Shown here one piece after another: positions 5,541 through 62,700 of a stretch of 64,000 nucleotides of DNA. The notes beneath the pieces were generated by a model, which had not been told where the DNA came from, did no database searches, and saw only the letters and a program-made list of their open reading frames with translations. The stretch covers positions 620,001 through 684,000 of the forward strand of contig RSEE01000025.1 in assembly GCA_003971905.1 (NCBI GenBank), given 5' to 3'. The DNA comes from Moniliella sp. 'wahieum' (Eukaryota). Position 1 is the first letter of the stretch. Each line of letters opens with the position of its first letter. The translations under genes and the position numbers were made by a program.

Positions 5541-7005
5541 AGCGCATGTGTGCCCTCCAGATGCGGTAGGCCTATTGTTGACGATGTCGGAAGCGATGAC
5601 CTTCTGCGGGGGGGGGGGTATAGTCTTGCGGCGCCTCTGGTGACCTGTGTGGGCTTTTGGTGTTATTGTGGGGCTGCGCGCGCCTTCCCCTACTTTTGCC
5701 ACGACATCATAGTCCGCCGGCGACAACCTCATCGATCATCGATCATCTCCCAACCACTGAAGTATATACGCAGGACGACGGCCACATCCTCCTCACGAAC
5801 CTGTGGTACCGCCTCCGTTCAACGTGATCAACGTACTCAACACGCATTTCTTTCGTGCAAGAGTTATGGCATTGTTTTTTGGGTTGCCGCGTTTTTCCCT
5901 TCTCTTTCCAAAAAGGTCCGACTACAACGGGGGGCCACTAGGCCACTGTGACAACACGTGATGAGTCCCGAGTCGGGTTGAGTTAGCCCATTTTCTCCCT
6001 TTGTTCGCTTCAGTCTTCTGAACACCGCATCCGTTTTCTGTGAACAACAACTATCTATTCTCTCGTTTTGATCAGAAGACGTTTCGTAAAGTCCCCGACA
6101 CACGCCCCGTATCCTGCAAAACTTACCAAACAGATAGGATTGCGCTCTGCCACTTTCGTTACAAGAGAGCAAAACTCAGCATCCTTTTCAAAGCTACTCT
6201 TCAAAGTCCAAAAGCTCCAAGCTCCACAAGCCCGTGCGTCCGGGGTTCCCTTCAATAGCTTCCATGTTAAGGTTCCGCGTTCAGCGTACGTACACAACAC
6301 AACACACGTCCGATCAATATCGCTACGGACGTGGGTGCATGGACAGTGACTAGCTTTTGACTATAAGGTAGTGCCATGGATTCCAAGAACCCAAGGAGTG
6401 GTGGTTTGTGTCTTACTATCACCGCACTGCAACTTTCAAAGTCAAAGTCGAGCAATGTTGCGTTCAAACCACGCTATCACATGGGCACCCAACCAGTGTA
6501 CAGCCCCCAGCGTTTGACAGCGCACCATTGCCATCCCCAGACCATCCCATTTGGCCCCTCTCCGCGGCGGCCAGCGTCTGGGTCTAGCTTCAGGCCCAGG
6601 CCTCAGGCCGGACTCAGGTACCATTTCCCATGCCCACGGCATGACATGGGCTGCTGTTGATGAACTCAGCGCACTCGGCATCCCCAGCTCCCCACCTGCC
6701 CATCCTCAGGCCTCAGGACCCCCACCTGGTCCTAGGCTACTGGCAGCTGGAAGAATGCGGATCTCTCTGAACGGGCGACAACCCTCAGTTTGCAGGGGTT
6801 GCCCCAAGGTTCACAACCGCTCCATCTGACCCCACTGCACATCATCTGCCTTGTCATGCATGCATCATGCCACGCCATCTTTACCGTGTGCTGGTTTGAC
6901 GCTTCAAGCTTCACATGTCACATGTCACCTGTCGAGCTGCCCATACTGAGCTCTGTCGTGTGCCATCTGCCCTCCCGCTCATGTCCAGGCCATCTGGCGT
7001 GTAGG

Positions 7006-8239: not shown

Positions 8240-9010
8240 ACAATTCACCCTCATGCCTTTAACGACTTAACTGAACACGTCTCCATTCCTGCATGGATTT
8301 TTTACCGTCATCTCTGTTTGATTCTTTACATACTTTACATATAGCTGCATCTTTTCCTTGTGTCCAGCCCAAGGAAGCCACTAGCCAAGCACTTGAAGGC
8401 AAGCTTGAGGTGGGGAAAGTCGATGGTGAAGCCCTTGCATGACGCGTGGTGCTTGATGATCGATGATGTCAACGTTCAACTTGCAACTTTCAAGAGGCGT
8501 GCAGACTGACTGCACATTGAAATTTTAAGCTTCACTTGAAGGCTGAGCTGGGCTTGCCTCGGTTCGGCGCAAGGCGGTCCGGGCCGGGAGAGGGGAGGCC
8601 GGAGGAGAGAGACGGAGACGCCGTGTCCCCAAGCCGGTGGCGAGGTGTGGGTTGCGGTTGTGGGTCCGGGTGGCCGGCCGCAACGGGAGCCGGAACCGGC
8701 ACGCGGGCTGCTCCACCGCGTGAGTGCAGGCCTGCGCTCGCCCTCCCTCGTGCGCTGCCCCGCCGGGTACTGCGGCCTGGGCGGAGCGTGGCGGAGCAGA
8801 CGGTATTGGATCGGTCGGCGTCCCCCCAACCAGTCCGCACCAGCAGCCAGCAGCCAGCCGCACCCACCCGGCTCAGCGAACCTCTTGCATCCGACGACCC
8901 CATCGCCACTCCTGCGCTTACCTTACCGTGGCATACCTTGCGTTGACGCTTTGACGCCACACCCCTTCGCCCTTCCCTTCTTCCCCGGCCCCCACTTACC
9001 CCTACCCCCC

Positions 9011-10218
9011 ATGTCGTCCAACGAAGAGCCTCTGACACCAGCGGAGAACGCACTGGCCGGAGCGTTGGGTGGTGTTTGCCAATGCAGTCACCTATCCGCT
9101 CGACACGGTCAAAACCCGTGTCCAGGCCGGAGCACGTCGGCCCAGCACCGATGGCAAACTGCCCGCGGGCCTGCCGCCGATCCACAAGAACACCTCTCTC
9201 TTCAAGGGCGTTCTCATCTTGGCCCGGTCCGAGGGCTTTCGTGCTCTCTACAAGGGCTTTGGCGCAAATATGGTCAACACGTTCCTCATGCGTATGTGCT
9301 GCGTTTTCTCCTTCCTCCTTCCTCCTTTTGTCCTGGCCTCTCGCCGCACGACCATTCCCTTGGCCCCCGCTGGGAGCGGGAGGGGGGGAAATAAGTCGTT
9401 GAACCAAAACTAATCCGTGATGACCTATTTTGTGCCTGCGAGCAGAATTCGCCTACTTTTACGCGTACGCCAACGTGCGTCGAGTCTACTTCCGCACCAT
9501 TCTGCGCATCCCACGCGGCACACAACGTCCCGTGCTCTCGACGGCTGTGGAGCTACTGCTAGGCGCGGTAGCGGGGGCGATTGCACAACTATTCACCATT
9601 CCAGTGAGTGTGATTGCGACGCGGCAGCAGCTAGGTGCGGCGCCTTCGCCCACGTCACCACGGACGTACAAGTTGGAGCATGAGCCGGTGTCTACGGGTC
9701 CGCTTGGCTGGGCCCAGCATAAAGCCAAGAAAGTGTGGTTGGAGCTTGTGCACGACGAAGAATCGATTGTGGGCGTGACGCGCGACATTTATCGTGAAGA
9801 TGGCATTACGGGGTTTTGGCGCGGGTTCAAAGCTTCGTTGGTGCTCTGCTCCAATCCGGCCATCACGTACGGCGTGTTTGCCCGGATGAAAAATTGGGTC
9901 GTTGCCGTATCGGGTGACCACAAGATGACTCCAGGTCAATCGTTTGTCGTTGGCGCAATGTCGAAATCCTTAGCGACCATCGTCACATTTCCTTACATCC
10001 TCGCCAAGATCCGCTTGCAAGCTCGTAATGCTCAATTCAACTCCGCTTGGCGCATGTTGGTCGCCATCCTCCAAACCGAAGGCATTCAAGGTATGTACCA
10101 AGGCATGCAGGCTCAAATCACCAAATCCGTCTTGTCCCAAGCCCTCCTCTTCTTCGCTCGCGATTACTTTGAAATCTGGACCCGCGCCTTGCTCGCAGTG
10201 ACGGGGGCGAAACGGTGA
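9011..10218 (+). CDS. ANT1: Mitochondrial-carrier-family protein, most like the peroxisomal adenine nucleotide transporter (Ant1/PMP34)
   Basis: ALAGALGG.FANAVTYPLDTVKTRVQ, AQLFTIPVSVIATRQQ, LCSNPAITYG, KSLATIVTFPYILAKIRLQ and GMYQGMQAQITKSVL. Intron ~9292-9445. One frameshift near 9075. Confidence 0.85.
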
Positions 10219-11879
10219 ACGTTCACGCGTTCACGTTCAAGTGAATGAACGGTGAATGGTGAACAGTGAACGGATCGGAGCGGATCGCTCGGGTGGTGGG
10301 GTAGGGGTGTAGAAAACGAGGTGAATCGGGGTCCGGGGGGGAAATGGTATATGGCGGGGGGAGGGAGGAAGAGAGCCCTATACGTCTCTCCTCCTCTTTT
10401 TGCTTATTTTTTTGTTCTATCTCTCTCGTTTTTGCCCTCCTTTTTCCTTTTCGCACACACAGCACAGATCCGGTTGGTTTATTGCTTGTTTGTTTGCTTA
10501 TTTGCTTGTTTGTTGGTTTGCTGGTTGGTTGTTTTTTTTTGCACTTGGCCCACCACATTTTCACCCCCTTCCCTCCAGATGTCTAGACACCTACCTTACC
10601 CCCCTCCCTACCGTCGAACAATTTCACTGCCTTGCTTTTCCTCACCGCGTGGCGCCCGCCTCCCGTCCCACGGATCAGATCATTGAATCATCCCGCTTGG
10701 GCCCATAGTTCTTCAGGCCAGATACCGTGCCCTCGAGGATCTGGTGTGCTTCCCTGTCCCCATTCGCATAAGTATTCCTATTCGTATTCGGTTTGGGATT
10801 GGGATTGGGATTATCTCGATTATCCGAGACGCAACACCAAGGCCAAGCCCAAGACGCACAAGCCCAACATGCTACAGCTAGCCTGCTACAACACCCACCA
10901 ACGCCAAACAACGATGCAAATAATAGGACTGGGGAATCGGTAGCGTTGGCTGCACTGCAATAGATGGAACGGTAACAAAACACAAGTGCTAGCAATAGCT
11001 TAGCAATAGCAGTAGCATGGCATGGCAATGGCATAGCGTAGATCCAATGGGAGGGAATCGGCGGCAGGCGGGTGTGCGGGGGGCGTAGCAGAGGTAAGGT
11101 TCAAGACGTACGTTCAAGGGCATACAGGGTTTACTTGCCCAGAGGTCACGAACAAAAAAAAACAGGTTGCAAAAGGAATCGATCACGCGAAACCTTCATT
11201 GAGGTTTCGGAGAATGAAGATGAGCGCCCAGACTGGGCATTCATCATCGCAACTGCGATAATACTACGTGACCTGACAGCGTAGAAAACGTGTGTATTTC
11301 TAGAAGGATGGAATATTGTCCGCTATACCAGTTTCTCTGCTAGATGTGTGCTGTTCGTCCAGAGAGGACGTTGGGTGCGCCTCTGGCACTTGGCTTTCTT
11401 GTCGCATCGGCTGGCTCCACTCAACCCAACGGCCCAACCCTCATTAATCATTGCATACCTTCTCGATTAACGATGGCCCACCAAGCTTCTGCAACCTGTC
11501 GGACATTCTCACAGGATGAGTCAATCTCTGCGCCTGCTCTCATACGCGTTGCGCGTTCTCCTTCCCATCATGCATGCCACACTTGACTTGCATCGGACGA
11601 TTACTATATCGGAGTATTCCCCACATGTGCTTGCCACCCCTTACTTGCCAAAACGTACGCGACACTAGCAGCCAGCAATGCGGGTTCCCCATTCCAAGGC
11701 ATGGGCATGCAGTGGCGGTACCGGTAAGATATGTAATCCATCCTCGAAGAAGCTCCGTGCTCATCACCGATCCATAACCCCACATGACAAAAAAAGAGAA
11801 GCAAAACAGAGAGAGGCAGGCGGGAGGTTGAGGAGATGTTCCATCAGTGATAATGGCACCATGGTACCCTGTTACCCTG

Positions 11880-13164: not shown

Positions 13165-14493
13165 GCGGGCACGCGGGTGTGGCGGGTGTCCTCGACCCGG
13201 GTGGGGGCAGCAGACGACGATGACAAGACAAACGAAGGGTGGTTGGTTGACGTGAGCACGGATCTCACTAATTAATTGCATGTATTAATTACCAGTCTCG
13301 TAAAGCCAAGCAAGCCTAAAAAAGCGAATAGGCGCTTTTAAAACCAGCTGCCCCCCCACCCCTTAGTCGAGAGGATCACTCGTTCGACCGGGCCAAGAGG
13401 CACTTCTTGCATTACTTGCTTGGGCTTCAAACTTGAAGCTTTAGTTAAGGAAGGGTCTAAGGGTCTGCCAACAGGTATTACTACTATAGTATATAGGCGT
13501 GCACAACAATGCAACTCGTGCCACCAAAGGCATACGACCAAGTAAGGGGGGAAGAAGTGGGAACATCGATCAGTACTGATCCCTACCCGCGTATACACTC
13601 CCACGCTCGTACGCTCCTCCTACTTTGTCCGACACTCGCGATGTTAAAGTCCTACGCTGACCCGATGTTCCTAGGGGATCGCCAGGGATCGCCACAACAG
13701 AAGAGAGCAGGTATTATACTTTTGTCTTCCCCCCCTCCCCCTCAATACAGCCGCGCTGCACCTGGTTTGTCGTCCACCGGGAACCCGACATCCAGGAAAC
13801 ACAGTCCGAGCGGGCAAGAGACGAAAGGGAGAAGAAAAGAGGGCATATATGGAGAGAGGGTAAGGAGAGAGGGTCAGGGGCGAGACGTGTGGGGACAATG
13901 GTTGAGAGGTGCTCAGCCTGAGCCGTACCCGGCCTCAAGATTGTATTCCGTAACCAGTGCTCAGTTGAGGCTCCTGAGCACCAAACTCATTTCTCCACTC
14001 AATCCAACGGGGAGCGCTGCGTACCAGAGACCATACCCACCAGTGCGCCCAAGCCTGCCCCAAGCGCGTTCAGTTCAACGTTCAACGTTCAAATCAAAGC
14101 GTTCAGTTCGTCTTCAACGTTCTGGCGCTCAGCTCAGTCTGAGCGCTGAGGCTCAGCCTGAGCCTCAGAGCGCGCCTCAGCAGGCCTCAATCAGGGTGTA
14201 CAAGTTCAGTTCACTATTTTCAACTCAACGAACGTTTTGTTCCTATCCCGTTGAGTTCAACGTTCCACATCCCACCTTCAAGCTTCAACCGTAACGTTCA
14301 ACTTGAACGTACTGACCTTCAGATCTCAGAGACCGACGGGTGGCACCGACGCATGGACACTGATACGGAGTATTACGGACTTCCAATCGACAACACCCGA
14401 GGCCGAGGCCCGAGGCAGAGAGACTGTGAGAACCGGCTGCAGTGGGGCGGCACGGCACGGCACGGCACACGCCATCAATTCCATTGCAGGTCC

Positions 14494-14544
14494 CAAGTTC
14501 CCAGTTCCAAGTTCCAAGTTCCAAGTTCCAAGTTCCAAGTTCCA
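14494..14544. repeat. (CAAGTTC)n heptamer microsatellite
   Basis: About 7 tandem units read directly. 7-bp period, but the unit is not palindromic. Confidence 0.9.
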
Positions 14545-15984
14545 GGTTGCATCATAGCCTAGTCGGAGCGGGCATCGCGGGCGCATGGAGTGTCCCCCTG
14601 TGGGCATCGATCTTGATCGTGCCATCAAGCCACAACAGTGGCATGTATCGAGTATCTTGCATCGTATCATCTATACGACCCTGCAGACCTGCACGTTCCC
14701 CGCCATATAATACGCAGTCCGGCAGGCAGGTGGGAAGCAGGTCCCCGCTCTAAGAACGCAGCTGACGCAGGGACATCGGGCAAGCAGAATGAGGTCCAAG
14801 GTCTACGATGTAAGATCTAAGATCTAAGATCCAAGATCCCAAATCCAAGATCCCAGATCGATCGAGAGTCAATGGGAGCTAGGGACTAGTTCAGTTCGTC
14901 GGAAGGCAAGCGATGGGAAGGGAAGGAATAGGGAGAGAGAGAGGAGGGAGCGAGCGAACGGCAAGAAAGCGGTAAAGCCTCAGGCAGCAACAGACTGAAG
15001 CACAGCACAACGGAAGACAAAAGGGGAAAGGAAAAGGGAAAAAGGACAGGAAAAGGCGACGGGCAGGAAAGCGAGGCAAGTGTCGGGTCAAGAGTCAAGT
15101 CAAGTCAAGTCACGGCGAGTCAAGCCAAGGCGAGAGGCGAGAGACAAGAGGAGAGGCAAGAGGCGAGGCAAGAGGCGAGGGGTGAGAACAGAGAGTGTCT
15201 TTTGGTTGGTCGTGGGAGATCCAACGAGGAAACAAGCGCACACAACAACCGTCGAATAGAAATGGGTAAGGAGAAAAAGAAAAAAAAGAGAAAAGAGAAA
15301 CCGAAATACAAAACTATACTAGCGTTTAGTAATACGGGAAGAAATACGGGAAGTGGTGGTGGTGGAAATGGTGAAGGTGAAGGTGGTGAGGGTAGGTTAC
15401 CAGGGTACAGTAGGTCTGCCGAGTAATACGTGCCCCCCACAAACGGGCGAGGTTTTAGTGGAGGGGGTGAGAGGACCACACAAGAGATGGGGGGAGATGG
15501 GAATCAATAAGGTGTCGCAAGTCGGGCCTTTTTGAACCTCCGTGGGCCAAAAGGCCACGGGGACCCAAGGGCAGGACAAGGACCGAAGCGGGCAAACATG
15601 GAGGGGGAAGCCTAGAGGGGAAAAAGGAAAGAAAGGAGAGAGAACGAGTGGAAGAAAAAAGGAAAAAAAGACAAAAGCAGGGGAGAGGAGGATGAGAGGA
15701 GTAGGGGAGAGGGGGGGATCCACCAGCTTAAGAGAGGAAGAAGAAAAAAAAAAGAAAAAACGGTGCGTGCGGGTGGGGGTAGCGGGACAAGTGGGGCAGG
15801 GCGAGGCAGAACGCCACGCCACAACCACACGAGCCATTAAAGCGAGACGTGAGCCCGCGCAGGACGAAGCCAAAGGGCAGTCAAGTCAATAACCGACCGC
15901 CAAAGAAAAGCATAGTAGACACTTGAGTTGGGACGCAAGTGCCTGGTGTGCGCGACGACTGAGCAGCGTAAAGCGGGGAACCGT

Positions 15985-18978: not shown

Positions 18979-21900
18979 GGTTGGCAGAGGGTGGGGTGGG
19001 GGAGGGAGGGGGTGTGCGCGCGAGAAGAACGAGAGGTGAGTCACTGGGTGGGGGGGGGTCGCGGCGCGGGGGGGCGAGAAGAGGGGCGGGGGGAGGGGGC
19101 GGAGGGCGAGGCGAAAAAGGCCAGCAGCGACGGGCGAAGCGAGCCCTTTTAACCACGCCGGCCGAAGCGTCTGTGCACCAGACTGCGCCCGCGCCGCGCC
19201 CCCGGACAAGCCTGAACTTGGTGGGGGCACGCGGGCAGTGTGGGCGAGGAGTTTGTTGGGCGCTGGGCGCTCTGGAGAGTGAATAGTGAATCTGCGTATG
19301 CATTCTGCATCCGCCGTGGATTTTGCACTCTGCCTTGCGTGCGGGGGCGGCTGGCTGTCCTGGCTCGGCCTGTGCGTGGCACCAGCCCAGCCACGCGCCC
19401 CGGCGCATCACCGTCGCCACTAGTATGGTCTCCCACGCCATGCGCTGGGCATGCGCAGCACGGGAGCGCGGCCCACAGCGCACCCACGCGCGCGGCTGGC
19501 CAGTGCGGCGGGTGGGTTGCGCCAGCCGCATGCATCACTGCTGATCAGCGCGGTGCCGCTGATCAGCGATGGGTTAGGGTGCATGCAGTACGATCGGTGA
19601 CAGCAATCACACCACGACACGACATCAGACATCCGCCCCTGACTACTCTGACGCCTGATATAATAGTGGCCGCAGCGGTGCTGCAGCCTTCCCGGGGGCG
19701 TGCGGCAGCCGCTCGGCGTAATTCCATGGGCGAGCGGGATCGCCCGCACCCCCTAGGGAGCGATGATCGATGATCGATGATCGATGAACGTTTGTTGAGC
19801 ACTGAGCGTTCGGCCCCGCGCCCCGCACGGCGCCACTGTGCCGGGAGCAATGCAGGGCGGGGGCGCACCTGCCGGCCGAGACGGGCGGCGCGCATGCACA
19901 CCTGAGGCTTGGCTGGCGCGTGCCCGCTGCTCCCTCCGCACGGCGCCAGTGCAAGGTCGCGACCAAGCGGATTCTTTGTCGGGTCGCAGTGGTCAGCATG
20001 CACCACGGCCAGCTCCCCCAGTGGCAAGGCGGCTGGCGGGAGCGTACCGCCCTCGTAACCGCTGAGGCTCAGCGCTCCGGCAAGGCTGATGCCCTGATGC
20101 ACCCCTGACTAGTGACCGGTGGCCGTGACCCCCCCGTGCAGAGCGGGCAGTACGTTCTGAGGCCCTGCGGGGGAGTGAGTTCGGGATATGAATCTGAGCG
20201 CTCATGAGCAGCGCAAGCGAAGGCTGGTGTGGCCGTCGTGTGGGCGCGGGCCGGCGCTGGAGGCACGGGCCCTGTGGAAGGCCTTGGCAGGGGCTGTCGA
20301 CCCGTGAGCCGTGCATGACGTCCCCTAGGATCGACATCCGTGCATCCGCCTCTCCCCACGCGCGCGCTGGGCTGGCCACCGGGCACTGCGCCGCACTGGG
20401 CCACACGCGGCAGGTGGCTGGGATGGGATTGAATGATCGATGATCGATGGGTTAGGTTGGGTTGTGATCTAGGCTCTCTCTCTCTCGCTTCCCCAGGCCG
20501 CCGTGGGCCGACCTGGGCCGACCAGTCAACCGGTCAGTACGTTCAGTAGAGTATGAATACGAATCCTGAGTTCACCCGGGACGATGTTCAACCAACCAGG
20601 CCGCGCGGCAGCAGCAGCGCGCATGACCCGCTCCACTGCCGCTCCCCCCAGTCAAAACAAAACGTTCAGCGTTGTCAACGCGCCAGCGTCAACGTTCATA
20701 CGTTCATTCACGTCCACCCTTCCAGCTCCACCGCAGGCCTCGCCGGTCTTTCCGATCATTGATCTGACCGATCATTTCGATCATTCCAGCTCGCGGAACG
20801 AGTGGGTCGATCATCGATCAGTTCTCAAAGGAAGCCAGAGCGAAGACGCTGCGTCGTGGCTCCATCGACGTTGGATCCAGCTCCTACGTCAAGCTTCAAG
20901 CGTCAAGCGTCAAGCTTCAAGATTGCAGCAGCTATGTAGATTGTTTGCGCTTCAATTGAATATTGGCTTTCTGGGCGTGTGCATGGCTAGCATGAGTAGC
21001 ATCGCCTTGCACCCATTTTTCGGAGCCATTCTAATTCTACCCCTACCCTTGCCCTCTTCTTTTCGCTCCGCTCCAGACTCCTTGGCGCCTTGGCATCGAC
21101 TTTCGAGAGCGCGCCTGCCCAGCTTGCTCGGCTCGGAGCTCCGCCACATCCCCATATGGCTGTACACACCCTCTCCTTTGTGTATAAGAAACCGGTACGC
21201 ATAACCGGCATAACGCATCTGCATCGCCGGTACCCCCCTTGGAGCGTATAGACTTCACATGTCACATGACCGTCACACGTCACGGCAGGTGGCGCTGCCG
21301 CCTGCGAAATCCTGCGTCTCGTTTTCCCGGTTCCCCCCGCCTAGCGCTGCCAGGCCTGCCTGCTTGTTGGTTGGTACAGCAGCCACCAGCCACTAGCCAT
21401 GCCTCAGGGGCAGCGGCAGTGTGTGGTAGCCGGTATGCCGCCATGTGTGGCGGGTACCGTACCCAGCACCGGTTTCGGTCCTGTCCCATGTCCGGCTCCA
21501 CTGGCCGCGGCAGCAGCGGCGGTGGAAGCGGTGCGGCGCCGCGCGTGGCCCTGGACCTGAGGCTCAGGCCTGCGGGAGCGCCGGAGCGCCTGCCTGTACT
21601 GACTGGTACTGAGTACTGAGTTACTGACTGGGCGCTTGGCTTTTTTGGTAGGAGGATCTCACATGCTGACATGCGGATCTGCTGACATGCATGACAAACA
21701 ACAGCGAGCATGCATCATGCATCATGCATATGCACGTGCATGAGCCTGCTGCATGATGGGTGAGCCAGCGCTCAGCGCTCACCGGACACACACACCAGAG
21801 ATCTGCCGGACTGAGGACCTGAGGAACTGAGGAACTGAGTCCTGCGCTGTGGTTTCGCCTGGGTTGCGGGCGAGGCAAGGATCACTGACACCAGGGTCCC

Positions 21901-22466
21901 CAGTACCGGCCGCAGCTAGTCCCTAGTCTCCCCCCCCGCTGGAAATTCAACATTGCACCTTGCGCATCCCTGAGAAACATGCGTCATGCGTCATGCGTCA
22001 TGCACATCATGTCTTCCGACCAGCGGTCTCAGATCTTATATTTACCGGATTCAATATTCACCGCCCTATCTACATGTCCATGTCATCGCTGACATCTCGC
22101 TGTCATCCCCTCCACATTCCACCACCTCCACCACCCCGTCTATTCCCGCCCGTCCCACGCCCCCTTCGCTACCGCCCCCTTCGCGTGGCGCTCCCAATGC
22201 CAGATTGGTGTTAGATGTGCGATGGGAGGTTGAGATGCGAGATCTGAGATCTGAGATCTGGGAGATGTTGAACGTTGAACGGTTGATGCATGTTGGTGCA
22301 TGGTGATTGATACATGATACATGATGCATGATGCATGTTGGTACATGTGATCATCGACTCAGTCGATGAAGCTGAAGCGCAACCAGTAGGATCCGTTGAC
22401 AAAAAACGTCTCTCCACACGCACGCATCCCAAGTAAACCATAGCAAACAAGACCTTTTCCAATTTC

Positions 22467-22520
22467 AAGCTTCAAGCTTCAAGCTTCAAGCTTCAAGCTT
22501 CAAGCTTCAAGCTTCAAGCT
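22467..22520. repeat. (AAGCTTC)x7 heptamer array, the longest of the palindromic-heptamer family
   Basis: Seven perfect units at 22467-22515 plus a partial unit. Confidence 0.97.
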
Positions 22521-24697
22521 CCAACCTTCCTGGTGCGAGCTTCACAATGTCACAGGGCGCACATTAAGTGCATGAGCGCATGAGCACCCAGACTGAGTGG
22601 TTGGCATTTGCGAGAATCCGACAGGGTGCATCATGCATCAAATTCCAAATTCCAAATCGAACCAACGCAGAAAAAAGGCCAGGAAAATGAGCAGAAAGAT
22701 GGGAAGGATACGCATGGGACATGGGACAGGAGAAGGGCTGCGAGAGATAGACATGGCCAGAGGGCTGAGGCTCAGCTGAGCCAGCCATTTTTCTGGCACG
22801 ACCGCCAACAAAATGCCATCCATCACAAAAAAAGTTTAAATACAACAAGTAACTAGTAACTAGTAACTAGTAACGTGGAACATGGAACATGGCACGCTGC
22901 GCTCAGCCGTTCAGCCGCTCCGCTGCTGAGCCTCAGCGCTGAGCTCAGGTGGACGGTGAGTAGGAAGAATGGAGATACTAGTCCTGCTGGATCATCAATC
23001 AGGCGCTCTGCTGTCTTCTCTCTTCTCTCTTCTCTCTTTTGAGATCTGACCGGTGACCGGTGACCGTGACCCGGCTCGGCCGGCGGACTTATCGCTGTCT
23101 TGGGTGGCAGCCGTTCGTTTGCATAAAGCGCTAAGTGCTAATGCCGAAAGAGGGGCAGAGATGCCGAGGTGGTATCTGGTCCCTGCTGGTCGGTCGGTGT
23201 GGCTGGCTGGCTGGCTGGATGTGGTCGGGTCTCTCAGGACGTTTTGCCCCAGAAACCTCCATTCAGTTACTCAGGTACTCAGTGTCTAGTGTACTCAGTG
23301 TCTAGTGTACTCAGCCCCAGAGAAATCCGAGGACAATATCTCGAGGAACACGCTGGTCGTCGGTGATATATAGGTCACTGGTCACCGGTCACAGACCTGT
23401 CACACGCAGCTGCTAGTTCCCTCCCCCAGGATCCTGGGTGACATCATCGAATTGCCAAGCCACACCCCCGCAATCCCCGCCCCCCCCTCGTTTTGCGTGC
23501 CAGCCTGTCCCATGTCAGATGTCACAGACGCGAGTCTGAGGCTAGAAACTTAGCTTCAGATCGCAGAAGCTTCAGAGGCTTTGGAGGCTTCAAGCTCCAG
23601 GGCCTCAGGGCGTTTGGGTTCGGGCTTAGGCCCATAGGGATTACTAGTTACTCAGGCGGCGTCCGAGGCCGCGGATATATTTTTCCCCCTGTGTCCTGCT
23701 ATCGTTTGCCAGCTCGTGGATATGAATACCGCGGTGCTGTTCCTCGTTCCTCTATTGCTAGGTACGAAGTACTAGGTCGTGCGGGTAAAGCCGGAACCAG
23801 CGTGAACCGAGTACCCGGGTACTACCACGGTAACGCAGTAAAGCCGATAGTCGATAATCGAAAACCCGATAACAGCGCCCGTGGGTATGCGTGACGCGTG
23901 ACGCGCGCTACCTGCATGTGTGAACATGTTCGTGATGCGCGTGATGCATAGTGTGGCTCTGAGGGATCTGATGCATGATGCATGATGCATGATGCACGGT
24001 GCATGGCGGCCGACTGCATCGACCATCCCTTGTCAACAAACGCATGTCTTGGTAGGCAGTCACATGTCACATGTCACAAATAACCACAGCTCTTAGAGCT
24101 TAGATTGTTGCTACAAGGAGGGATAGTGGAGTGGATGGAAGAGTAGGTGGACGCGTGCCGAGTAGGTAGGTAGACGAGTGATGGACCATGGTCGATGGAC
24201 GACCATACGTGCGCGCTAGATGGACGACAGATGCTCACCGGCCTCTCAGTATACTGGTGATGGTCACTATGGTCACTCATTAGGCCTTACCGGTACCGGT
24301 TACCCCCTTCTCACCATTTCGTTGTTACTGCTCTGGCATATTTTACTGGTTACTAGTTACGCGTTACGCGTTACGCGTCACTCGCGCACGACCAGCAGTT
24401 ACTAGTTACGAGTTACTCGTTAACGCTGCTAGTTGTTAGATTCCTTTTCGCCACCCCATCTCGCCGCCCGCGATCCATCATATGCATCATCGATGAGAGT
24501 GTTGGTGGTCGACGTTACGCGTTACGCGTTACGCGTTACTCGTTACGCTTACGTCTGTCCAGTGTGCATTGTATGTCCCTACCCTCATTAACAACGTCAT
24601 TAACGTTTAACGTTTTACGTTTTACGCGCGTCGCAATCACGTTTAGCGTTGAAGTTCAACGTTCAACATCATCGACATCATCGATCCTCCGTCCACA

Positions 24698-24734
24698 CTG
24701 CATCTGCATCTGCATCTGCATCTGCATCTGCATC
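24698..24734. repeat. (CTGCAT)x6 microsatellite
   Basis: Read directly. Confidence 0.95.
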
Positions 24735-26490
24735 ATTAACGACTGTCGTGTCCCCTACATTGTCGCACGGTCGTGCGCGCGCGCGTCCTCGCATATATAT
24801 CGCCACGCGCCACTGCAGATCGTTGCCTACCGTTGCAGGCTATGCACCGCCCTCAGTCTGCCAAGAACCTGCAAGAGCCTGCAATAACTCCCCCCAGGCC
24901 CCAGGCCCCGTTTCTCTTCCGTCCACAGCAACAACAGGCACCAACACACACCAACACACACAACACGCAAAGTGGACTGATTGGTTCAGCCGCGGTTCCT
25001 TTAGCGTTAATTACGTTAATTCTCGATTTTCATCGACCATCACCAATTTTGAATACGGAACTATATTGACGAGTGCGAGAGCTGCCGTGAGTGCATGAGC
25101 CCAGCGCGGGGGGGCGCGGTACTACGTCGGGGCCGGCCGGGTCGGGATCGGGATCGTCGGGATCGGAGTGGAGGGTCTTGTTAGTACTTAATACTTGGTT
25201 GTCTTTTCGTTCCTTGGTCGGAGTGGTCGGAGCGCCGCGCATCCAACTAGTATGCATCTTCAAAGTGTCCTACTGGGAATCTCGCTTCCCCCCCCCCTCT
25301 CTGCTGCACCGTCGCCACCGTCGCCACCCACACGAGCCGAGACAGGAAACCACAAGATATGAACGTACGTTGACCGTTGAACGTTGAACGTACGACTCCT
25401 GAGTAACTGAGTCCGAATCGCGCCGCGCATGAGGAGGAGCGCGTGGGTTAAGTATGGGTGTGTTTGTGTGCCAACTAGCGGCACACAACAGCTGCACATC
25501 GACCCTGGGGGGCACTGAGTACTGACTGAGTCCACCGTGAGCCGGGTCAGATCGATCGTACGGCTGGAGTTGAACGTTGGGACGTTGAGATCGAGTTGAG
25601 AGTTGAGTACTTGAGTAACTGCGATGTGACAGGTACGAGCGAGGCTCGAGGCTGGAAATCCATGCACCATGCCGGAAAGAGGATTATCGATCATGGCATA
25701 TGGTGCAGCATGACGAAGTGTTTGCGGGGTACATCAGGGTTCAACTCATCAGGGTACATCCCCAGCCTCAGGCCACCTCGGAGTACATCTTTTGGTAAGC
25801 ATTCTTTTGGCGCGTTGTCAGATGTGTACATGGTATATGCCCTGTGATATATGTTCCCGTATGTCCCCAAGTTGTACACCCGAAATGGGAAGCTGTGCCT
25901 GCGCGCCTTCGATCATTGCGATCATATTTCTCTGATCGAATCGACGACTTTCGTCTGCAGGTACTTTAGTTGTGTTGCGGCCGGGACGTCGACTAGGTAC
26001 TAGGTTCTACTTCGTTCCTACCCTTTTCGCGTTCTGCGTTCCTCGACACATGCCAATGTAATGCCACGCGGGCCAGGCCGAAGCCGGGCGGCCATTGTTG
26101 CTCGCTGGCTTGCACGCCGAGCTCCAAGCAGCAAAGTGGACACCACCCCGACCTCCAGTCTCCCCGTTTCTCCTCGGCCAAAACAAGAACGTGTTGGCGC
26201 ACGAACGATACTTGGCAGAGGCAGTGCCGTAACGGTCTGTGTGGATGCATGTATCGCAGGCAACCATGGTGGCTCTCTTGCGCTTCCCCGTTATTCAGGG
26301 GGGGGGAGGGGGGAGGGAGGAAGGTATATAACAGTGTGCATGATTTCGGACGCTACCGACGTTTGACTCCCATCGACTCTCATTATATCTCAAGAAAGGC
26401 AGAGAGAAAGATCCAGCTGCGCGTGTCTCTGCGCTCTCCCCCGAGAGCAGCTGGTAGAGGAACTGGAAGGCTTTTTTCCCATGGCTGATT

Positions 26491-26842
26491 CCATGTCATT
26501 GGCAGAGCTTAAGGCTGGGACAGGGGGAACGCTACGTCTAATCCTAACCGTTCATCTTGCGGGGTTACTTAGGGCACCACCAGGGTCAAGGAACCAGGGG
26601 GATCGCCAGGATATCAGGACCCTCCGGCTCGCGCCATCCGGTCCCGTACCCTAGGTAGCGCGTGTGAACACGGATAAACGTGGTTGACATCCGAGCGAGG
26701 AACCATGTCCACTGAGACTTAGTAGCCAACTCCTTCCAATGCGCAAACAACTTGCCCGCCGTCTTGGTGCCGTAGTATTCTCGCGTCGTCAAACCAGGGG
26801 GAAAAACGTCTCTTGAGTGCGTCCCTGGTACTTGGCGTTCTT
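26491..26842 (-). mobile_element. Dispersed repeat copy A (coding-derived, probable transposon relic)
   Basis: Reverse complement aligns end to end with 54463-54813. Encodes TTREYYGTKTAGKLFAHWKEL...GWREPEGPDILAIPLVP. Confidence 0.75.
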
Positions 26843-46100: not shown

Positions 46101-48168
46101 CCGCAAAACGTTCTTGAAGGTTGAAGGTTGAAGCTTGCAGTATTCACAACAGTCTCTGCTCTTGAGATTACGAGCTGGATACAACTTGTCGGGTGCGATC
46201 TGATATAATGCGATCGCTGTTACATATTTGGCTCCTATACTCTTCACAGGGAGCAAAGCATCAGTTGTTCTCTTGTCCACCAGCGTTCGGTACGTCGGGT
46301 GCGTTCAACGGTTCAACGTTCCAGCGCGCCACACAGGTTCCACGTTCAACGTTTCAACGTTCACACTTTCAACGTTCACCGGTCACCGGTCATTCCTGCC
46401 TTTTTTCACACACGACTATACTGCATCCAATATGTATGGTTTTGTGGCCACCGATCGTACCGCGAACAGGTTGAGCTGAGCTCTTCTGGTTTGTTTGCAT
46501 ACATAGGCAAAATGATGGTGAAAAGGGCGGAGATGACACGCATCACAGTCGTGAGTATCAAACCTACGCGCTGGGATATTGAGTCTATAGCTTTAAGCCA
46601 CCCAGCTTTTCAAGCTTTTTGACATGAAGCTTGAAGCTTCACTTGAAGTTTGAGCGCTTTTGAGCCTTGAGCTTGAGCGCCTTGAGCTAGCTTGAGCGCT
46701 TGAGCAGCTTTGACCTTCAAACTTTTCACAACTGCAAAGCCCTAAAAAGTTCATGATTGGGATTCACGCAGGGCACGCGGGTCACGTGCTACTATTATAC
46801 CAGCGTAACGCGTAACGCCCTTTTGACTCGTAGCGCGAAGGCTCGAAACGCGTAAAGTGTAAGACGCACAACGGGTTTCGGACGTGGCGAGTGGCCATGG
46901 AGTCGTCCGCGTCATCCGCGCCAGCGTCATGGATGGAATGGTCTGGGGGGGGCAAGCAACTGCCGGGAACTGCCAGTGACGTTATGGTTGTTGCCACACG
47001 ATTAGGTACGTGGTGTGAGTCGGTGTGAGATCTGAGAGGCATGTGCGGTCGCGGCTAACACGTTCACGCGTTCGCGTTTTTACAGGGGACATCACATGTG
47101 ATATGTGAACATGTGAACGTTGTGAACGTTGAGTACGCCGAACGCGCGGAATACGTGGCACAACAGGACACAATATTCCTATGAGTTACCAGCTCTCGCT
47201 CCCCATTCACATATTCACGCCGTAACGCGTAACGCGTTAGGTAAGTAGTAAAGCTAGACAGAAGGGGGCAGATCAGATCTCAGATATCAAAATTGTGGGT
47301 AGGTGGTACACCCCCCTGGCTAGGTGATGCAATGGTACCATTGGGCGTCGATATTCGATCGTGGCCGTGAAAGTGTATTGCCATCGGTCTCGCGTTCAAC
47401 GTTCACGCATTGACGTAAACGGCGGGGGACATTTTCACAGGGAAATCAGTCACCTCGTGATGTTTGGCACGTCCCGCCGGAACCGCCACCTTCGGCGCCA
47501 CTTTGGGTTCATTTACACTGAGACAGGGTTGCGGTATTCCCTAGATTCACTCGAAGCTTGACCGCCGAGCGTGAAAAAAGCGGCCGTGAAAATAGCTCCG
47601 CACGGGGGCAGTGTGCAAGCAGCTCCTCGTTTGAAAAAGCGCAGACGGAAAATGCACGCGTGGATGATCATCACCCATGCCACCGATGAGATCCAGGAGC
47701 CCCCTGCGACGTCCAAAGGCCGAGGTCCACCTCGCCTCAGCGCCTCAGCAGCTCAGCCCAGAGGCCTGACCAGATTTTTCACTCTCGATTGTCGTGCCCT
47801 CAGGCTCAGGCTCAGCGGCTCAGCCTGAGCCCTTGCCTCAGGGTTGTCAGGGCCTCGGCGCCTCAGCCGAACCGTCGTCGTCCGTCAGGGCATCAGCCAC
47901 CAGCAGAACCCGCTAAGCCCATGCAGGCAGAGGCATGCTCTGGCCGCCGCACGCAGCTTGCAGTGGGCAGGACAGGCCATGGCGGCTCGGAGTCAGATCT
48001 CAGACAACAGAGATGCCTGTGGTCTGCGTATGCCTGCCGCCTGTTCTGGTCTCTGCGCCCTGGCCACTAAGCTTGCTCGTGGGTTGGAGCAAGTGAACTT
48101 GCTGACCCTCTCTCAACTCTCGACTTCCATCCGTCTGTCCTTGCCCCTGGCTTCTACCTTCTCACGCC

Positions 48169-54462: not shown

Positions 54463-54813
54463 AAGAACGCCAAGCCAAGTACCAGGGACGCACTCAAGAG
54501 AGTTTTTCCCCTGGTTTTGACGACGCGGGATACTACGGCACCAAGACGGCGAGCAAGTTGTTTGCGCATTGGAAGAGGTGGCTATAAGTCTCAGTGGAAA
54601 TGGTTCCTCGGGATGTCAACCACGTTCCTCCGTGTCCATACGCGCTTCCTAGGGTACGGGACCGGATGGCGTGAGCGGAGGGTCCTGATATCCTGGCGAT
54701 CCCCTGGTTCCTTGACCCTGGTGCGCCCCTAAGTAACCCCCGCAAGATGAACGGTTAGGTTTAGACGTAGCGTTCCCCCTGTCCCAGCCTTCTTAAGTCT
54801 GCCAATGAAATGG
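54463..54813 (+). mobile_element. Dispersed repeat copy B (inverted relative to copy A)
   Basis: Colinear, high-identity match to the reverse complement of 26491-26842, with small indels that break the reading frame. Confidence 0.75.
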
Positions 54814-56551
54814 ACGTTGTCTAGAGATGCATTTTTCCTCTGGGCAGTGCATGATTTGTCCGCCAAAGGGATTCCTATACCAGTGGTCACTAGGTCACAG
54901 TCACTGTCTGCCAGCTATTACTAAGAACTCTGCATAAAAGTAGAGAGCAATGCGCAAAAGGGCGATAGGGCGTGACTGGCGTCTAAGAAAGCCCAGACTC
55001 CGTGTTACGGGGCACTCAGGTTATTTCCGGACGAGCGTAAGCCAGCTCATCTCATAGACATCTCATCCAAACACGCGTCAATCGCGTTACACTAGCGAGA
55101 GAGAGCAACGGATACCTTATCCATGCTGGAAATATCTCATCCGCTGCCCGCCCTGTGGCCGCATGTGCTTATCGGTACGATGCGTTGTGCTCATCGCACC
55201 CAGTCACACAACCCTTTAAGCTTACCTGTGCTGCGCCCAATTGCGCAGCGTCAACGTTGAGAGCACGGGATCAGTCTTTACCCTCTGGAAAGTTCCCCGC
55301 ATTCTGTTTATATACCTCTGTGTCATGAGGCACTTGAGGCCTGAGGCCTGGTTCTTCTGTATATAGTAAGCAGCCCTGCGTAAGGCTTGCTATAGCTATG
55401 GTCCTTGTCGACCACCATGTTACACCTGATACTGACCTGTTGAATTACTGTCCCTGTTCTCTACCCTTTCCATTCCTCTCTCGCCCATTGCACCTTCTCC
55501 ACCGTATAAATTTACAAACTGACATGTCGGTTACACTCTAAGCCGCGGTACTCGCAACCTAGCGCTTGCTCTTCGTTAGGAACTGTCTGATTCACCTATT
55601 ACACATCGCGTGTCGAGTGTGGTAACGCCCCAGGGTAACCCATAATGCATAACCCACGTTACGCGTTACCACAGAGTTCCTGTGAACCCCCGCAACGGGT
55701 CTGGCCGGACTTTACGTACGCTCCTTCCTCGGAGGTTCTGAGCTGCGGTCGTTGCACGCAGGCGCCGCCCCCCAAACTAGAGGATCTCCCCCTCGCCTCT
55801 ACACCAACCCGCTCGGTTCGACCAGGATCTGAGGCAGGACATACCGGATGTGGTTCCGATTAGCCGTTCAAAAGTTATAATACCCCCCTAAACACCTTAA
55901 CCACAACAAAAATGCTTCGTCGTTATCGTCTTGTGATATGTAGAGAGTGAGGACCATATGTATAAGAGCTGAGTACTCAGACTGAGTGTGGAGAGAAGCA
56001 CTGCAAACGAGCAACTATAAACAAGACATTATATTCTCACAAGTTACTAGTTACCGGCTTCCAACGTGGTCCAACTGAAAAATTCTAAGGCTAAAAAGGA
56101 GCTTCCAGGAAACCAGTTAAGCAGGTTAATATTTAATGCGCAACCCCCGGAGTCGAGATGCCAGCTTGGAGGCGCGGCGCTGCCGAAAGCTTGACGGAAC
56201 GAGAAAAAGAAACGCCCCCCTGGGTGGTTCATTTCTCAACGTACCCAATAAAACCTCCGTTGCCGACAACATTGAACGTTGAACGTTGAACAGGCGCCAT
56301 AGCACCGATGCATATGTGCGTACTCTTTCTGCCTTTCGCTCTCACCGTTTACATGGTGACGAAAGGGGGGGAATTCAAAGAACGAACGATGTGGATGGCA
56401 TCTGTTAAACGTAGGACTCAACAACGTTTTGACATGAAGATAGATTGATAGTAGATCGATAAGATGCGGTGCGTGCTGATGCAGCGCTGATGCACTCTGA
56501 TCAGAAGCACAGGACGATGGGCGAGATGGTCGATGGGAGGCTATCCGGCTA

Positions 56552-57834: not shown

Positions 57835-57872
57835 AAGCTTCAAGCTTCAAGCTTCAAGCTTCAACGTTCAAC
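57835..57872. repeat. (AAGCTTC)x4 continuing in phase into AACGTTC
   Basis: Read directly. Confidence 0.95.
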
Positions 57873-59682
57873 GCCAACAAAAGCATCAAGCTGTGTCCGA
57901 TGAACGTGTTGCTGGATGCACCACGCCTGCCAGGCTTCACATCCAAGTAAGCACTAAGCCCAGTCGGCAGCTCCAGCCACATTCATTCGCTGGGACAGTG
58001 CCGCTGGGGTGTCCGCGGGTTGTGCTATAGTGGCAGAGGCCATATGATATGATCGACGTGATCGCGCTTGTTGCCGCATCGGTGGCTCCGATGCATGCTC
58101 AGTTTTTGCCGTATCATTTATCATTTACACTAGACCGGCGCCACACGCATATAAGACACGCCGCGCGCACTGACTTGCCTTTTGGAATTGTTATTTGCGC
58201 GAGCCAAGCAGCTGCCTTTGGCACTCCTTCCTTTGCTCTCTCCCTCCTTCCGCCATCCCCCTCACCACATCTTCGCCCATCCTCTTTTCGTTATTTGCAC
58301 CCATGACCTGCTGTCTTCGCCATACTTCCTATTCACCCTCAATGTCCCATGCTTCCGGACTCTCACGTACGTATGTCCTCCGTGCATCGCCTCAAAGTCA
58401 CCCCTCTTCTTCTGTATCTAGTGCCCCCATTTTCCCAATCATAACCGGGCTAATTCCTTGTCCATCTTGCAGGAAGCATGGGCAACATGGCACTCGGTCC
58501 CTACGTTCGCTGTCCGTTCTGCGACAACATCATTGTCAAGTTGAACGAGTGACCTCCTGCCACCGCTCCTCATCGGGGTACGTTGCAAAGAACCCTGAAG
58601 CTTCACCTCAGGCCTCATCCCAGTCCCGGCGGCTGGTCTCCTGCCCCTTGGTCCTTACATGCTCCCCTTGACTTGTCGCCATCGACTGTTACGTTGTGGG
58701 ACTATGCGTCGTGGATCATGACGAGCCCTGAGGTCAGGGACCTTAGGCCTATGATCTGCCTCAGCAAGCCTGCTCCCCCGCTGAATCATGGTCACTGAGC
58801 TGGTTCCATTTCGGCTCTCTCGCCCCAAGTTTCATGAGTTTGATCGTATATTCTTCATCCCTCTGTCCAGCTTCCCATTACCACATCGATACCATCACTC
58901 TCCTCACATGAACATTTTGTCCTGTATCCTGTTTCTTCCCATTTCGTCGAGAAGACCGCTAGGCAACGAATACATCTCCCCCTCTCCATCTCGAACTTTG
59001 GACCTACTTATTATCTTCTTGACACCATACTCCATGTCATGCCTTGGGGCATCTGCATCTCCGCTCTACTGGCTGCCGTATTGTGATATGCTCGCAGTGC
59101 CACGTTGTTTCCTGGTGATTCTACATCGTTCTGCTCAGTCCCGTTCTCTTAGCCCCCAACACACTAGTGTAGCCCAATTAAGGACTGGGCAATGGGGTTG
59201 ATTTAATACTCTCTAGTTTTCTTTCGAGTCTCGACTGGTAATGGGTTGGTTTTCACTCGCGAACTCATTCTATTGGGGCCTAACAAGGTACATCGCAGGT
59301 ACAACACGCGTCCAGTTCGAAGGGAGGATTAGGATGGGGAATCTCTGTTGGTGTGCCCTGCTACACCTTGCACACACGCCGATGAAGGATTGGGCACAAC
59401 GGTTGTGGGTGTGTAAATCAGACTGCAGTTGACCATCTCATCGTAGTAACGTCTCTCGTGGCCTCTTGGTCTCTCCGAATTGCCCGCTGTTCGCAATGAA
59501 TCCAAACTCAGTAGCTCTATCGGACGTACTAGTCAGCAAGTTGATTGGCTTTGCAATGCAAGAACATGGAATTCATCAAGCTTCAACCTGCAAGCTTCAC
59601 GCTTTCTAGCTAGCGCAAGGGTGGTGCAGGGGAAGTATGAGCATCTGAAATGCTATCTTGCAGGAGGGACAACCGGGATGCT

Positions 59683-61291: not shown

Positions 61292-62700
61292 TGCAGGTAA
61301 CCGGTAACACTATTTCCCTCTCCTAATTGGACAGGTACTGTATAAAAGTCGAGGGAAGGCAGGTACAACCAATTAGTGGCTAGTCAAGAAGAGGTACATG
61401 ATTTGTTGCCGTAAGAAAAACAGAGCAATGGCTAAGGACGGGGCTTGAGAGCTTGAGGGAATAAAAGAATCCCGGTTACCTAAATCGGACCTGACGCGTG
61501 ACGGGCAGCGCACGTGTGGAAGCAGACACCGGATGAACGCTCAGGCGCTTAGGCTGAGCGAACGTGGTGGACAAGTGTTTCTCTGTTCCCTTGACGATCA
61601 TCGAGATGACGCGGACGCCTCTGCTACAGGAAGCAACCTATGAGGCACTGTACTCAGATCCACCTACCGCCCGCCCCCGCACAGATGCCACCAGGGATGT
61701 GGCAATCCGGTTGGAGTTTAAAATTTAACGTTTCATGTCGAACTGAATGTCGAGGTCAACGTTTCAATCTTCCACTATAGTAAACGCCCGCCCTCTCTTG
61801 TCGGTCGATGCACGATGCAGGATGATCGATGATCGATGATCGATGAGGCCTCGGCCTCAGCGTCCTCAGCCTGAGGATACTACTGCGATCGATGATTCTT
61901 CGCCTTGTCGCGGTCCCACAGCCGACTCCACACCACCACATGGCTCAGGGCGGATGCTCGGTGCGGGACGATCGAGGATCCCGATGAGGTCGATGAGGGA
62001 GAGAGAGAATGCCTGTCTCTGTCTCCCAGCCTCTGTGGGCGGCGCAAGAAGGGGCTCGTCCTTTAGCTTCTCCAGCTCTCTCTGCTATACTATTAGTCAC
62101 AAAACCCCACCGCGGGGGGGACACACAGAAGAGTGGGCACACCCGGTGGCGGTGCCTGTCGCTGCCGAGTGACAGTTTTGCGAGAAGCACGTGTACCCCC
62201 CACATGCATCCATGCATCCATGCCTCCACACACACCCCAACTGAAACTGTGGTGTATTGGACATTTTGCTCTGCATGTGGGTGGCACCATGTGTGGCTTC
62301 CTCGAGAAGTGGCATACACGTTCAACCAAGAAGAACGCCAGCTAAAAGGGCGTAAAAACCCCAGAGCTTGACTAATTAGTACATACCCTACAATAGATGT
62401 GTATACTGTTAACTGCCACGACCAGAGCCTCTCGAGCACCCCCACAGTATGCCACATCTATCCTGATTCAGAGAGAGAGGCGCCACCGTTCCCTTCAAGA
62501 CCACAGCCAGCCTCTCCTGTTGTACTCTTATGGATGGCGCTAGGCACGGAGCGATTTGGCCGAACGCGAACGTTGTGGCGCAGACTCTCGCGAGCTTAGT
62601 GCTGTTTTTTAGTTCCAAGCGAGAGGACGCTCGCGCCTTCGTTATCTCTCTGTCATAACATCTTGTTGCTTGTACTAGAGTGAAGAGTGACTAAAAAGCA

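Follow-up and report, generated by a model that had tools for sequence, protein, structure and literature searches.

How can different perfect palindromes stand next to each other in DNA and still keep an exact spacing of seven base pairs? The question is raised by a short array at positions 24352-24378 of a 64,000-nucleotide stretch of Moniliella sp. 'wahieum' (contig RSEE01000025.1, positions 620,001 to 684,000), which was analysed in full and is called the window below. The array, read as ggttACTAGTtACGCGTtACGCGTtACGCGTcac, consists of the palindrome ACTAGT followed by three copies of the palindrome ACGCGT, with the spacer T throughout, and is enclosed by the interval 24345-24379 to which an earlier sequence-only reading had drawn attention. 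It is equivalent to GTTAC-TA followed by GTTAC-GC three times, and an exact period-7 run occupies 24356-24378 (3.3 copies). The analysis presented here found that such in-phase mixtures are more frequent in the window than chance allows, and that they belong to a family of heptameric repeats in which a T-N-A triplet alternates with a self-complementary four-base core. All counts refer to this one window, except those given for bacteria.

Palindromes in a seven-base register

Of 3005 ANNNNT hexamers in the window, 385 are palindromic (12.8%; 6.25% expected). The same palindrome comes next 49 times at a distance of +7, once at +6 and twice at +8, and a different ANNNNT palindrome comes next 17 times at +7, twice at +6 and never at +8. 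Different palindromes also recur at +14 (10 times) and +21 (7 times), with counts of 0-6 at the other distances within 3-22 that are not multiples of seven. No peak is visible when a non-palindromic ANNNNT is followed by a different non-palindromic one (100 at +6, 110 at +7, 107 at +8). Markov simulations preserving the k-mer content of the window (60 runs each) yielded 2.87 +/- 1.54 heterologous +7 pairs at order 5, which preserves 6-mers (maximum 8), and 6.23 +/- 2.4 at order 6, which preserves 7-mers (maximum 13); order 3 gave 0.47. The claim of the sequence-only reading that different palindromes are joined without loss of phase is thus borne out in the window, whether +7 is compared with +6 and +8, with non-palindromes or with k-mer expectation, and heterologous in-phase palindromes beyond chance are confirmed.

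The 17 heterologous junctions comprise eight that differ at two paired positions and nine that differ at all four inner positions. At nine of the 17 the spacers before, between and after the two palindromes are one and the same base, and each of the 16 chains of at least three units holds a single spacer base, in agreement with the constancy of spacers noticed earlier. Two caveats apply to these junctions: at least three of them look like by-products of other periods (10218, of period 8, and 34694 and 57563, recognised as 9-bp repeats by reading the letters by eye), and ten are pairs of single units, not arrays.

Period 7 is by far the commonest among the 210 rows reported for the window by Tandem Repeats Finder, and five-mers match 841 times at +7 compared with roughly 100-400 times at other distances. 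Arrays of period 7 that contain two exact copies or more number 82, the longest having 8.1 copies, and qualify as short tandem repeats (STRs). A perfect palindromic hexamer is present in 46 of the 82, in comparison to 11% of random 7-mers of the window; the 46 are divided into 44 of the form A....T and two of the form C....G, with none of the forms T....A or G....C. Many of the 24 one-off arrays are single-mismatch versions. When all 64 palindromic hexamers are considered, 49 of the 50 same-palindrome pairs at +7 are A....T.

The same restriction is seen from the side of the triplet. Where T-N-A is repeated at +7, the core is palindromic 125 times and non-palindromic 73 times (ratio 1.71), while for the 15 other triplet classes this ratio is between 0.015 and 0.137. 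Where a palindromic 4-mer is repeated at +7, TNA lies between the copies 62 times and every other class 1-9 times. Odd palindromes with arms of at least six bases are centred on TNA in 54 cases, against 6, 7 and 20 for the other centres. That the contrast is limited to TNA among 16 triplet classes argues against composition as its source, and the description of the unit as a word of fixed frame, with TNA at every seventh base and a self-complementary 4-bp core, holds. Equivalently, the unit is an A-NNNN-T palindrome joined to one spacer base, which is mostly C or G. Isolated palindromes show only a slight rise of T at -2 and of A at +7 (27-29% vs 22%).

The core was also described as free, and here only a part of the description can be kept. 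All 16 palindromic cores occur, but cores made of A and T only are rare (6 of 91), and the cores CGCG and CTAG are tied to T or A spacers (11 of 14 loci vs 10 of 77 for other cores, Fisher p = 1.9e-6). Because of this association GTTAC-GC and GTTAC-TA form a sub-family across separate regions. The strand-normalised spacer of the arrays is C in 36 and T in 8. Units with a T or A spacer, mostly GTTAC-GC or GTTAC-TA, stand at 22850, 23641, 24350, 24399, 24515, 41443, 46806, 47223, 55659 and 56044; since they recur in at least five separate regions, particular 7-mers are favoured and the rule does not act by itself.

After merging, the family counts 85 loci in 64 kb, about 1.3 per kb, and it avoids coding sequence: Pfam-supported open reading frames (ORFs) hold two of the 85 loci, where 13.9 are expected. 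The gene models used for this count were the Pfam-supported members of 179 distinct ORFs scanned for domains; a gene map based on codon bias was tried and abandoned in their favour, its signal being too weak (13 ORFs passing).

A second recurrent word of the window is a 13-bp odd palindrome, GCTGAG-S-CTCAGC or GCTCAG-S-CTGAGC, which is an inverted pair of C-TSA-G. It is found at 13911, 14132, 14145, 14151, 20061, 22764, 22925, 34670, 47818 and 60816, with related forms at 21556, 61864 and 55975, and it makes up most of the excess in long GNC-centred palindromes (the 20 with arms of at least six).

Copying, turnover and a bacterial control

The arrays are dyad-symmetric about every spacer and every core centre. 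When perfect arrays are set aside, TNA-core-TNA words have identical N bases in 60 cases, complementary ones in 11 and otherwise different ones in 7. Mirror-image +7 pairs of non-palindromic A....T units are limited to two, at 24088 and 24408; the latter is ACGAGT-t-ACTCGT at 24408-24420, inside a decayed array. A single large degenerate palindrome over 20-27 kb was considered as well and rejected, with 380 inverted against 440 direct 9-mer matches and no common axis. Identical spacers, rare mirror pairs and the lack of an axis of inverted matches together mean that the units were propagated as direct copies. Copying templated by a hairpin would flip the spacer and can have contributed little at most. 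In 125 words a TNA with identical N is present on both sides of the core, the arrangement expected of microhomology duplication.

The share of A....T-palindromic units climbs with the length of the period-7 match (13%, 28%, 38%, 60%, 72% and 80%), which fits preferential growth of such units and is also compatible with chance matches diluting the short classes. Isolated TNA-core-TNA words are extended by half a core on the left in 32 of 64 and on the right in 37 of 64, and TNA-core-TNA plus two nucleotides is the preferred short form (19 of 23 runs of length five). Arrays end at a TNA edge or at a core centre in 41 of 88 cases, compared with about 25 expected (summed by hand). Loci within 1 kb of each other have the exact spacer base in common in 30 of 68 cases, compared with 21.5 in permutations (p = 0.017), and of consecutive chains 8-50 bp apart 21 of 91 are in phase (p = 0.016). 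Among neighbours at +7 there are 17 heterologous perfect palindromes and 24 one-mismatch units. Two-mismatch neighbours are palindromes in 8 of 34 cases, whereas independent hits would give about 1 in 15, and all six double changes of the central dinucleotide keep the palindrome.

For comparison, a collection of bacterial and archaeal genomes was scanned with 28 bases of the longest array of the window, that is with one motif. At least 121 bacterial loci carry exact (TCAAGCT)n arrays of 4-12 copies, and a single genome often has several. The arrays come mainly from Pseudomonas, Stutzerimonas and Zobellella and also from distant and candidate phyla; we know of no description of them. They resemble the fungal arrays in their unit, in their mostly intergenic place (29 of 72 between convergent ORFs) and in having arrays of other heptamers next to them in phase. 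The difference lies in these neighbours, which in bacteria are one-mismatch, non-palindromic units that expand freely: at the bacterial locus L028 (1930-2117) the in-phase order is AAGCTG-c, AAGCTA-c, AGGCTT-g, AAGCTT-g, ACGCCT-g and ACGCCT-a. Another locus with the exact arrays is L024 (2001-2087). At +7 from an A....T palindrome, 498 identical and 90 one-mismatch units were counted in bacteria, while heterologous palindromes are at background (13 at +7, 17 at +6 and 16 at +8), and perfect palindromes are present in only nine of 129 other period-7 arrays. It can be said that the bacterial loci show plain turnover of heptamer motifs and that the fungal window differs from them exactly in its in-phase palindromes. 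With such neighbours as the outcome of simple microsatellite decay, decay is rejected for the fungal window; the bacterial control, the 8 of 34 two-mismatch palindromes, the six of six symmetric central changes and the nine neighbours with all four inner positions changed uphold the opinion that these are not remains of a single decaying microsatellite. As a separate observation, bacterial arrays lying between co-directional genes carry TGA on the sense strand in 23 cases vs 8, according to a crude ORF call.

How the arrays may have arisen

The explanation that we prefer, and hold tentatively, is that of a lineage-specific heptamer STR family in non-coding DNA, growing by slippage or microhomology and passing through a filter for dyad symmetry. 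Arrays would arise and grow by replication slippage or by microhomology-mediated tandem duplication, and the repeated TNA, often TNA plus two bases, may serve as the microhomology arm. A shared TNA arm would fix the 7-bp register and let each new unit inherit the same spacer base. New cores would arise in place beside old ones, and the filter would allow only dyad-symmetric, TNA-punctuated units to expand or persist, which would explain that present-day neighbours are once more perfect palindromes in frame. The simplest candidate for the substrate of the filter is the fold predicted for a pair of neighbouring units of the same strand, in which a 5-bp stem carries a T-N-A loop; some factor of repair or replication might recognise or spare it. 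For strands of three units, nearest-neighbour folding yields -2.8 to -3.2 kcal/mol for A....T, the same for T....A, and -4.7 to -6.9 kcal/mol for G....C and C....G. As the A....T class folds most weakly, stability alone would favour the absent classes and cannot separate T-N-A from A-N-T; the folding energies fail to give the rule, so something must presumably also read T-N-A.

Several findings weigh against this explanation. The region of the array at 24352-24378 folds no better than its shuffles (z = -1.49), and hairpin stability had to be rejected as the cause of the A....T rule, for the least stable A....T class makes up 44 of 46 arrays. The association of cores with spacers points to preferred words, and these would not be expected from a filter for symmetry alone. 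Non-palindromic heptamers expand too, such as CCAAGTT in eight copies at 14493-14548, which has neither a palindromic hexamer nor T-N-A and demonstrates that the rule is not absolute, ATGCGT-c in 3.7 copies and AAGCGT-c in 2.9 copies. Phase coherence is of short range and fades past about 50 bp. The four-position differences at nine of the 17 junctions need several steps or another route, and the generality of the explanation is bounded by the single 64-kb window.

In a possible, though unlikely, alternative the units are scars written by an enzyme. A TNA-acting dimeric nuclease, or a transposase- or recombinase-like activity, would duplicate TNA around a 4-bp palindrome; if one of the two TNA copies of an existing scar were hit again, another core would be added in register and with an unchanged spacer. 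This would account for a repeated part that consists of TNA and keeps its N (60 of 78 words, perfect arrays set aside), for a variable part that is always dyad-symmetric with an effect confined to TNA, for the one spacer common to heterologous units and for the excess of array ends at TNA edges and core centres (41 of 88), and, since stability does not explain TNA, a sequence-reading factor is needed. Transposons offer analogies: after excision of Tc1/mariner elements a short palindromic remnant stays behind between two copies of TA, and the target duplicated by PIF/Harbinger elements is a 3-bp TNA or TWA. In the window, however, no transposon or transposase domain is visible, all 16 cores occur where transposon ends would be expected to leave a fixed remnant, most isolated words run on into partial units in the manner of short microsatellites, and arrays of up to eight units would require many hits at one site. 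It is rather improbable, in our judgement, that the heptamers are traces of an undescribed TNA-specific transaction of this fungal lineage which duplicates T-N-A and deposits a fresh 4-bp palindrome; a nuclease or transposase, either domesticated or active, could carry it out as a symmetric dimer, and the arrays and in-phase mosaics would then be event logs instead of slipped microsatellites. Selection might also maintain the symmetry, if the arrays were binding sites of dimeric proteins or formed RNA or DNA hairpins in untranslated or intergenic regions. The arrays are indeed intergenic and avoid ORFs, specific words recur at separate places (TTACGCG in at least five regions), and the bacterial AAGCTT-c arrays are mostly intergenic, with the 29 of 72 lying between convergent ORFs, where hairpin-forming elements act. 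Some hexamers resemble fungal regulatory sites, ACGCGT a cell-cycle box and GTCACATG a Cbf1-type site. We regard a function of this sort as doubtful, for at least 12 different palindromes in the same frame cannot be explained by any single factor, copy number and boundaries vary as in neutral repeats, and both orientations are about equally common and mixed within a region.

Templated symmetry correction, which the sequence-only reading had suggested, is very unlikely. In this scheme a hairpin or cruciform would let a half-unit or a unit act as template for repair, turning single hits into paired changes. The six symmetric central changes, the mirror-image pairs at 24088 and 24408 and the 11 TNA-core-TNA words with complementary spacers, as expected of folding back, speak for it. 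Correction between neighbouring units should produce mirror-image pairs, but two of these are few beside 17 heterologous palindrome pairs, spacers are copied directly (60 vs 11 complementary), nine junctions differ at four positions, and the changed bases would lie in the loop of a unit-centred hairpin, where there would probably be no template. The other term of that reading, modular assembly, is correct as a description of the pattern, without specifying a mechanism. As regards chance, composition or by-products of other repeats, three of the 17 junctions do lie in 8- or 9-bp repeats and the order-6 Markov model already yields 6.2 heterologous pairs; the observed 17 exceed the simulated maxima of 13 and 8, the distances +6 and +8 give only two and none, the contrast is limited to TNA, and the bacterial control exhibits no comparable excess, so that this origin is scarcely credible.

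The arrays in their window and among known repeats

All eight mixed arrays quoted in the sequence-only reading were found in the window as it had written them. Besides the array at 24352-24378, these are AAGCTT-c followed by two ACATGT units at 6906-6925, where the palindromes differ at four positions and the spacer is c throughout; AACGTT-c-ACGCGT at 10218, which lies inside a period-8 repeat (row 10220-10235); ATCGAT-g in three copies and then AACGTT at 19766-19792 (feature entry 19752-19792), with two paired positions changed; AGATCT-g and two ACCGGT units spaced by g at 23042-23061; AACGTT-c and two ACCGGT units spaced by c at 46371-46390; AAGCTT-c in four copies and then AACGTT at 57835-57868, where the change is from central GC to CG and the AACGTT is itself in two copies (57860-57873); and ATCGAT-g in three copies and then AGGCCT at 61825-61851.

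The patch from 21500 to 25500 is the densest of the family, with many arrays of different cores in both orientations; period-7 hexamer matches number 150 in the bin of 22-24 kb and 70 in that of 24-26 kb, and the patch holds no Pfam-supported ORF. The longest homogeneous array, AAGCTT-c in 8.1 copies, lies here at 22464-22520. Close to the array at 24352-24378 are the heterologous pair AGGCCT-t-ACCGGT at 24282-24294, in which all four inner positions differ and the spacers are t, t and a; the decayed GTTAC-NN array at 24397-24422, with ACTAGT-t, ACGAGT-t and ACTCGT-t (GTTAC-TA, GTTAC-GA and GTTAC-TC); ACGCGT-t in 3.9 copies followed by one-mismatch units at 24513-24553; and AACGTT-t at 24600 and AACGTT-c at 24654. 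Other short repeats made from the same small palindromes are CTGCAT in 6.2 copies at 24698-24734, of period 6 with a TGCA core and a 2-base spacer, and the 16-bp unit GTACTCAGTGTCTAGT in 2.5 copies at 23275-23314.

At 8518-8548 and 46625-46655 there are two 31-bp stretches that are 84% alike and read TGA-AATT-TTA-AGCT-TCACTTGAAG... and TGA-AGCT-TGA-AGCT-TCACTTGAAG... respectively. Their likeness stops at the flanks, and the paralogy that would polarise the change between the AATT and AGCT cores is unproven. Both contain GAAGCTTC, which we take to resemble a heat-shock element.

The only dispersed repeat of the window, found by self-BLAST, has copies of about 345 bp at 26490-26836 (+) and 54474-54814 (-), which are 91% identical, inverted and 27.6 kb apart. 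Terminal inverted repeats and a target duplication are lacking, the ORFs that overlap it have no Pfam match, and there is no transposase domain among the 179 distinct ORFs scanned. Transposon footprints as the source of the heptamers found no support in the window: the TNA looks like a duplication, but the supposed remnant takes all 16 forms, and no element with inverted termini is present there.

The window is eukaryotic, with genes for a succinate dehydrogenase flavoprotein, a plasma-membrane H+-ATPase, fructose-1,6-bisphosphatase, a cyclin, a mitochondrial carrier, an alcohol dehydrogenase, an IBR protein and a family-28 glycosyl hydrolase. A search for RNA families returned one tRNA (tRNA-Ala) and no other known family. 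For two conserved enzymes the best named relatives in the protein collection are all from Ustilaginomycotina, with Testicularia, Pseudozyma, Thecaphora and Ustilago at about 83% and Tilletiaria, Kalmanozyma, Tilletiopsis and Tilletia at 76-79% to the window enzyme; judged by these relatives, the host is a smut-allied basidiomycete of that group, and none of the named species in the collection is closely related to it. The guanine-plus-cytosine content varies between 0.50 and 0.64 along the window. A purine-rich stretch of low complexity with an AT skew of 0.35 and many A/G-rich short repeats occupies 14900-15800, just beyond the low-coordinate end of the last ORFs on the ATPase strand that pass the codon-bias score. 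Nested inverted repeats (1402-1425/1825-1848, 1465-1488/1771-1794 and 1622-1655/1849-1882) form an imperfect palindrome of about 480 bp at 1402-1882, next to an ORF with a weak match to the N-terminus of ribosomal L23.

For the question of what decides which motifs expand, the fungal family offers an unusually sharp and simple grammar. The palindromy rule survives changes of motif in the fungus but is not obeyed by the same unit in bacteria. Tests of the rule could tell whether repeat instability is driven by structure or by an enzyme. With about 1.3 loci per kb the family would be a major intergenic component and a rich source of markers. No description of heptamers built from T-N-A and a palindrome was found in literature searches on palindromic or heptameric repeats in fungi and on microhomology duplication. 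In hairpin-forming expandable repeats such as CAG/CTG, self-pairing of the strand is thought to raise slippage and to lower repair, and in yeast palindromic loops escape mismatch repair. The fungal units differ from repeats of the CAG/CTG type in that predicted stability does not rank them and that the loop triplet must be T-N-A.

A closer formal parallel is offered by microhomology-mediated tandem duplication, in which a segment flanked by short direct repeats duplicates and can expand (PMC8639346 and PMC13167724, in the portions available); TNA-core-TNA has the same form. As described in those portions, this process requires neither a palindromic segment nor a particular arm sequence, unlike the fungal unit. 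Microhomology-mediated duplication has been proposed as a general birth route of tandem repeats (bioRxiv 10.64898/2026.02.28.708716), and the strings 'palindrom' and 'hairpin' are absent from the available text of that preprint. Palindromic microsatellites of the form (A)n-TATA-(T)n, intergenic and variable in length, are known from Fusarium mitochondria (PMC7218506); as far as the accessible part of that paper describes them, each of these mitochondrial repeats consists of one inverted homopolymer pair and is not a row of 7-bp tandem units.

The nearest relatives in period are the lineage-specific heptameric simple sequence repeats of bacteria, GGGAATC in Xanthomonas and GGGGA(T/C)T in Nostoc, described in the accessible part of PMC4692102. 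The same part refers, through its reference 33, to over-representation of heptamers in many bacteria, and takes up a proposal which relates period 7 to the length of DNA that the polymerase holds. These repeats and the fungal family are alike in period 7, in intergenic location and in hundreds of loci per genome built on one motif rule that leaves some positions variable, the fungal side of this last likeness being known from 85 loci in 64 kb; copy number is variable in both, in the fungal window from array to array, and some loci form inverted pairs (PMC4692102, same part). According to the same source the Xanthomonas and Nostoc heptamers are G-rich, prone to form quadruplexes and non-palindromic, whereas the fungal rule combines T-N-A with any 4-bp palindrome that contains G and C, and those families are bacterial, while the one described here is eukaryotic.

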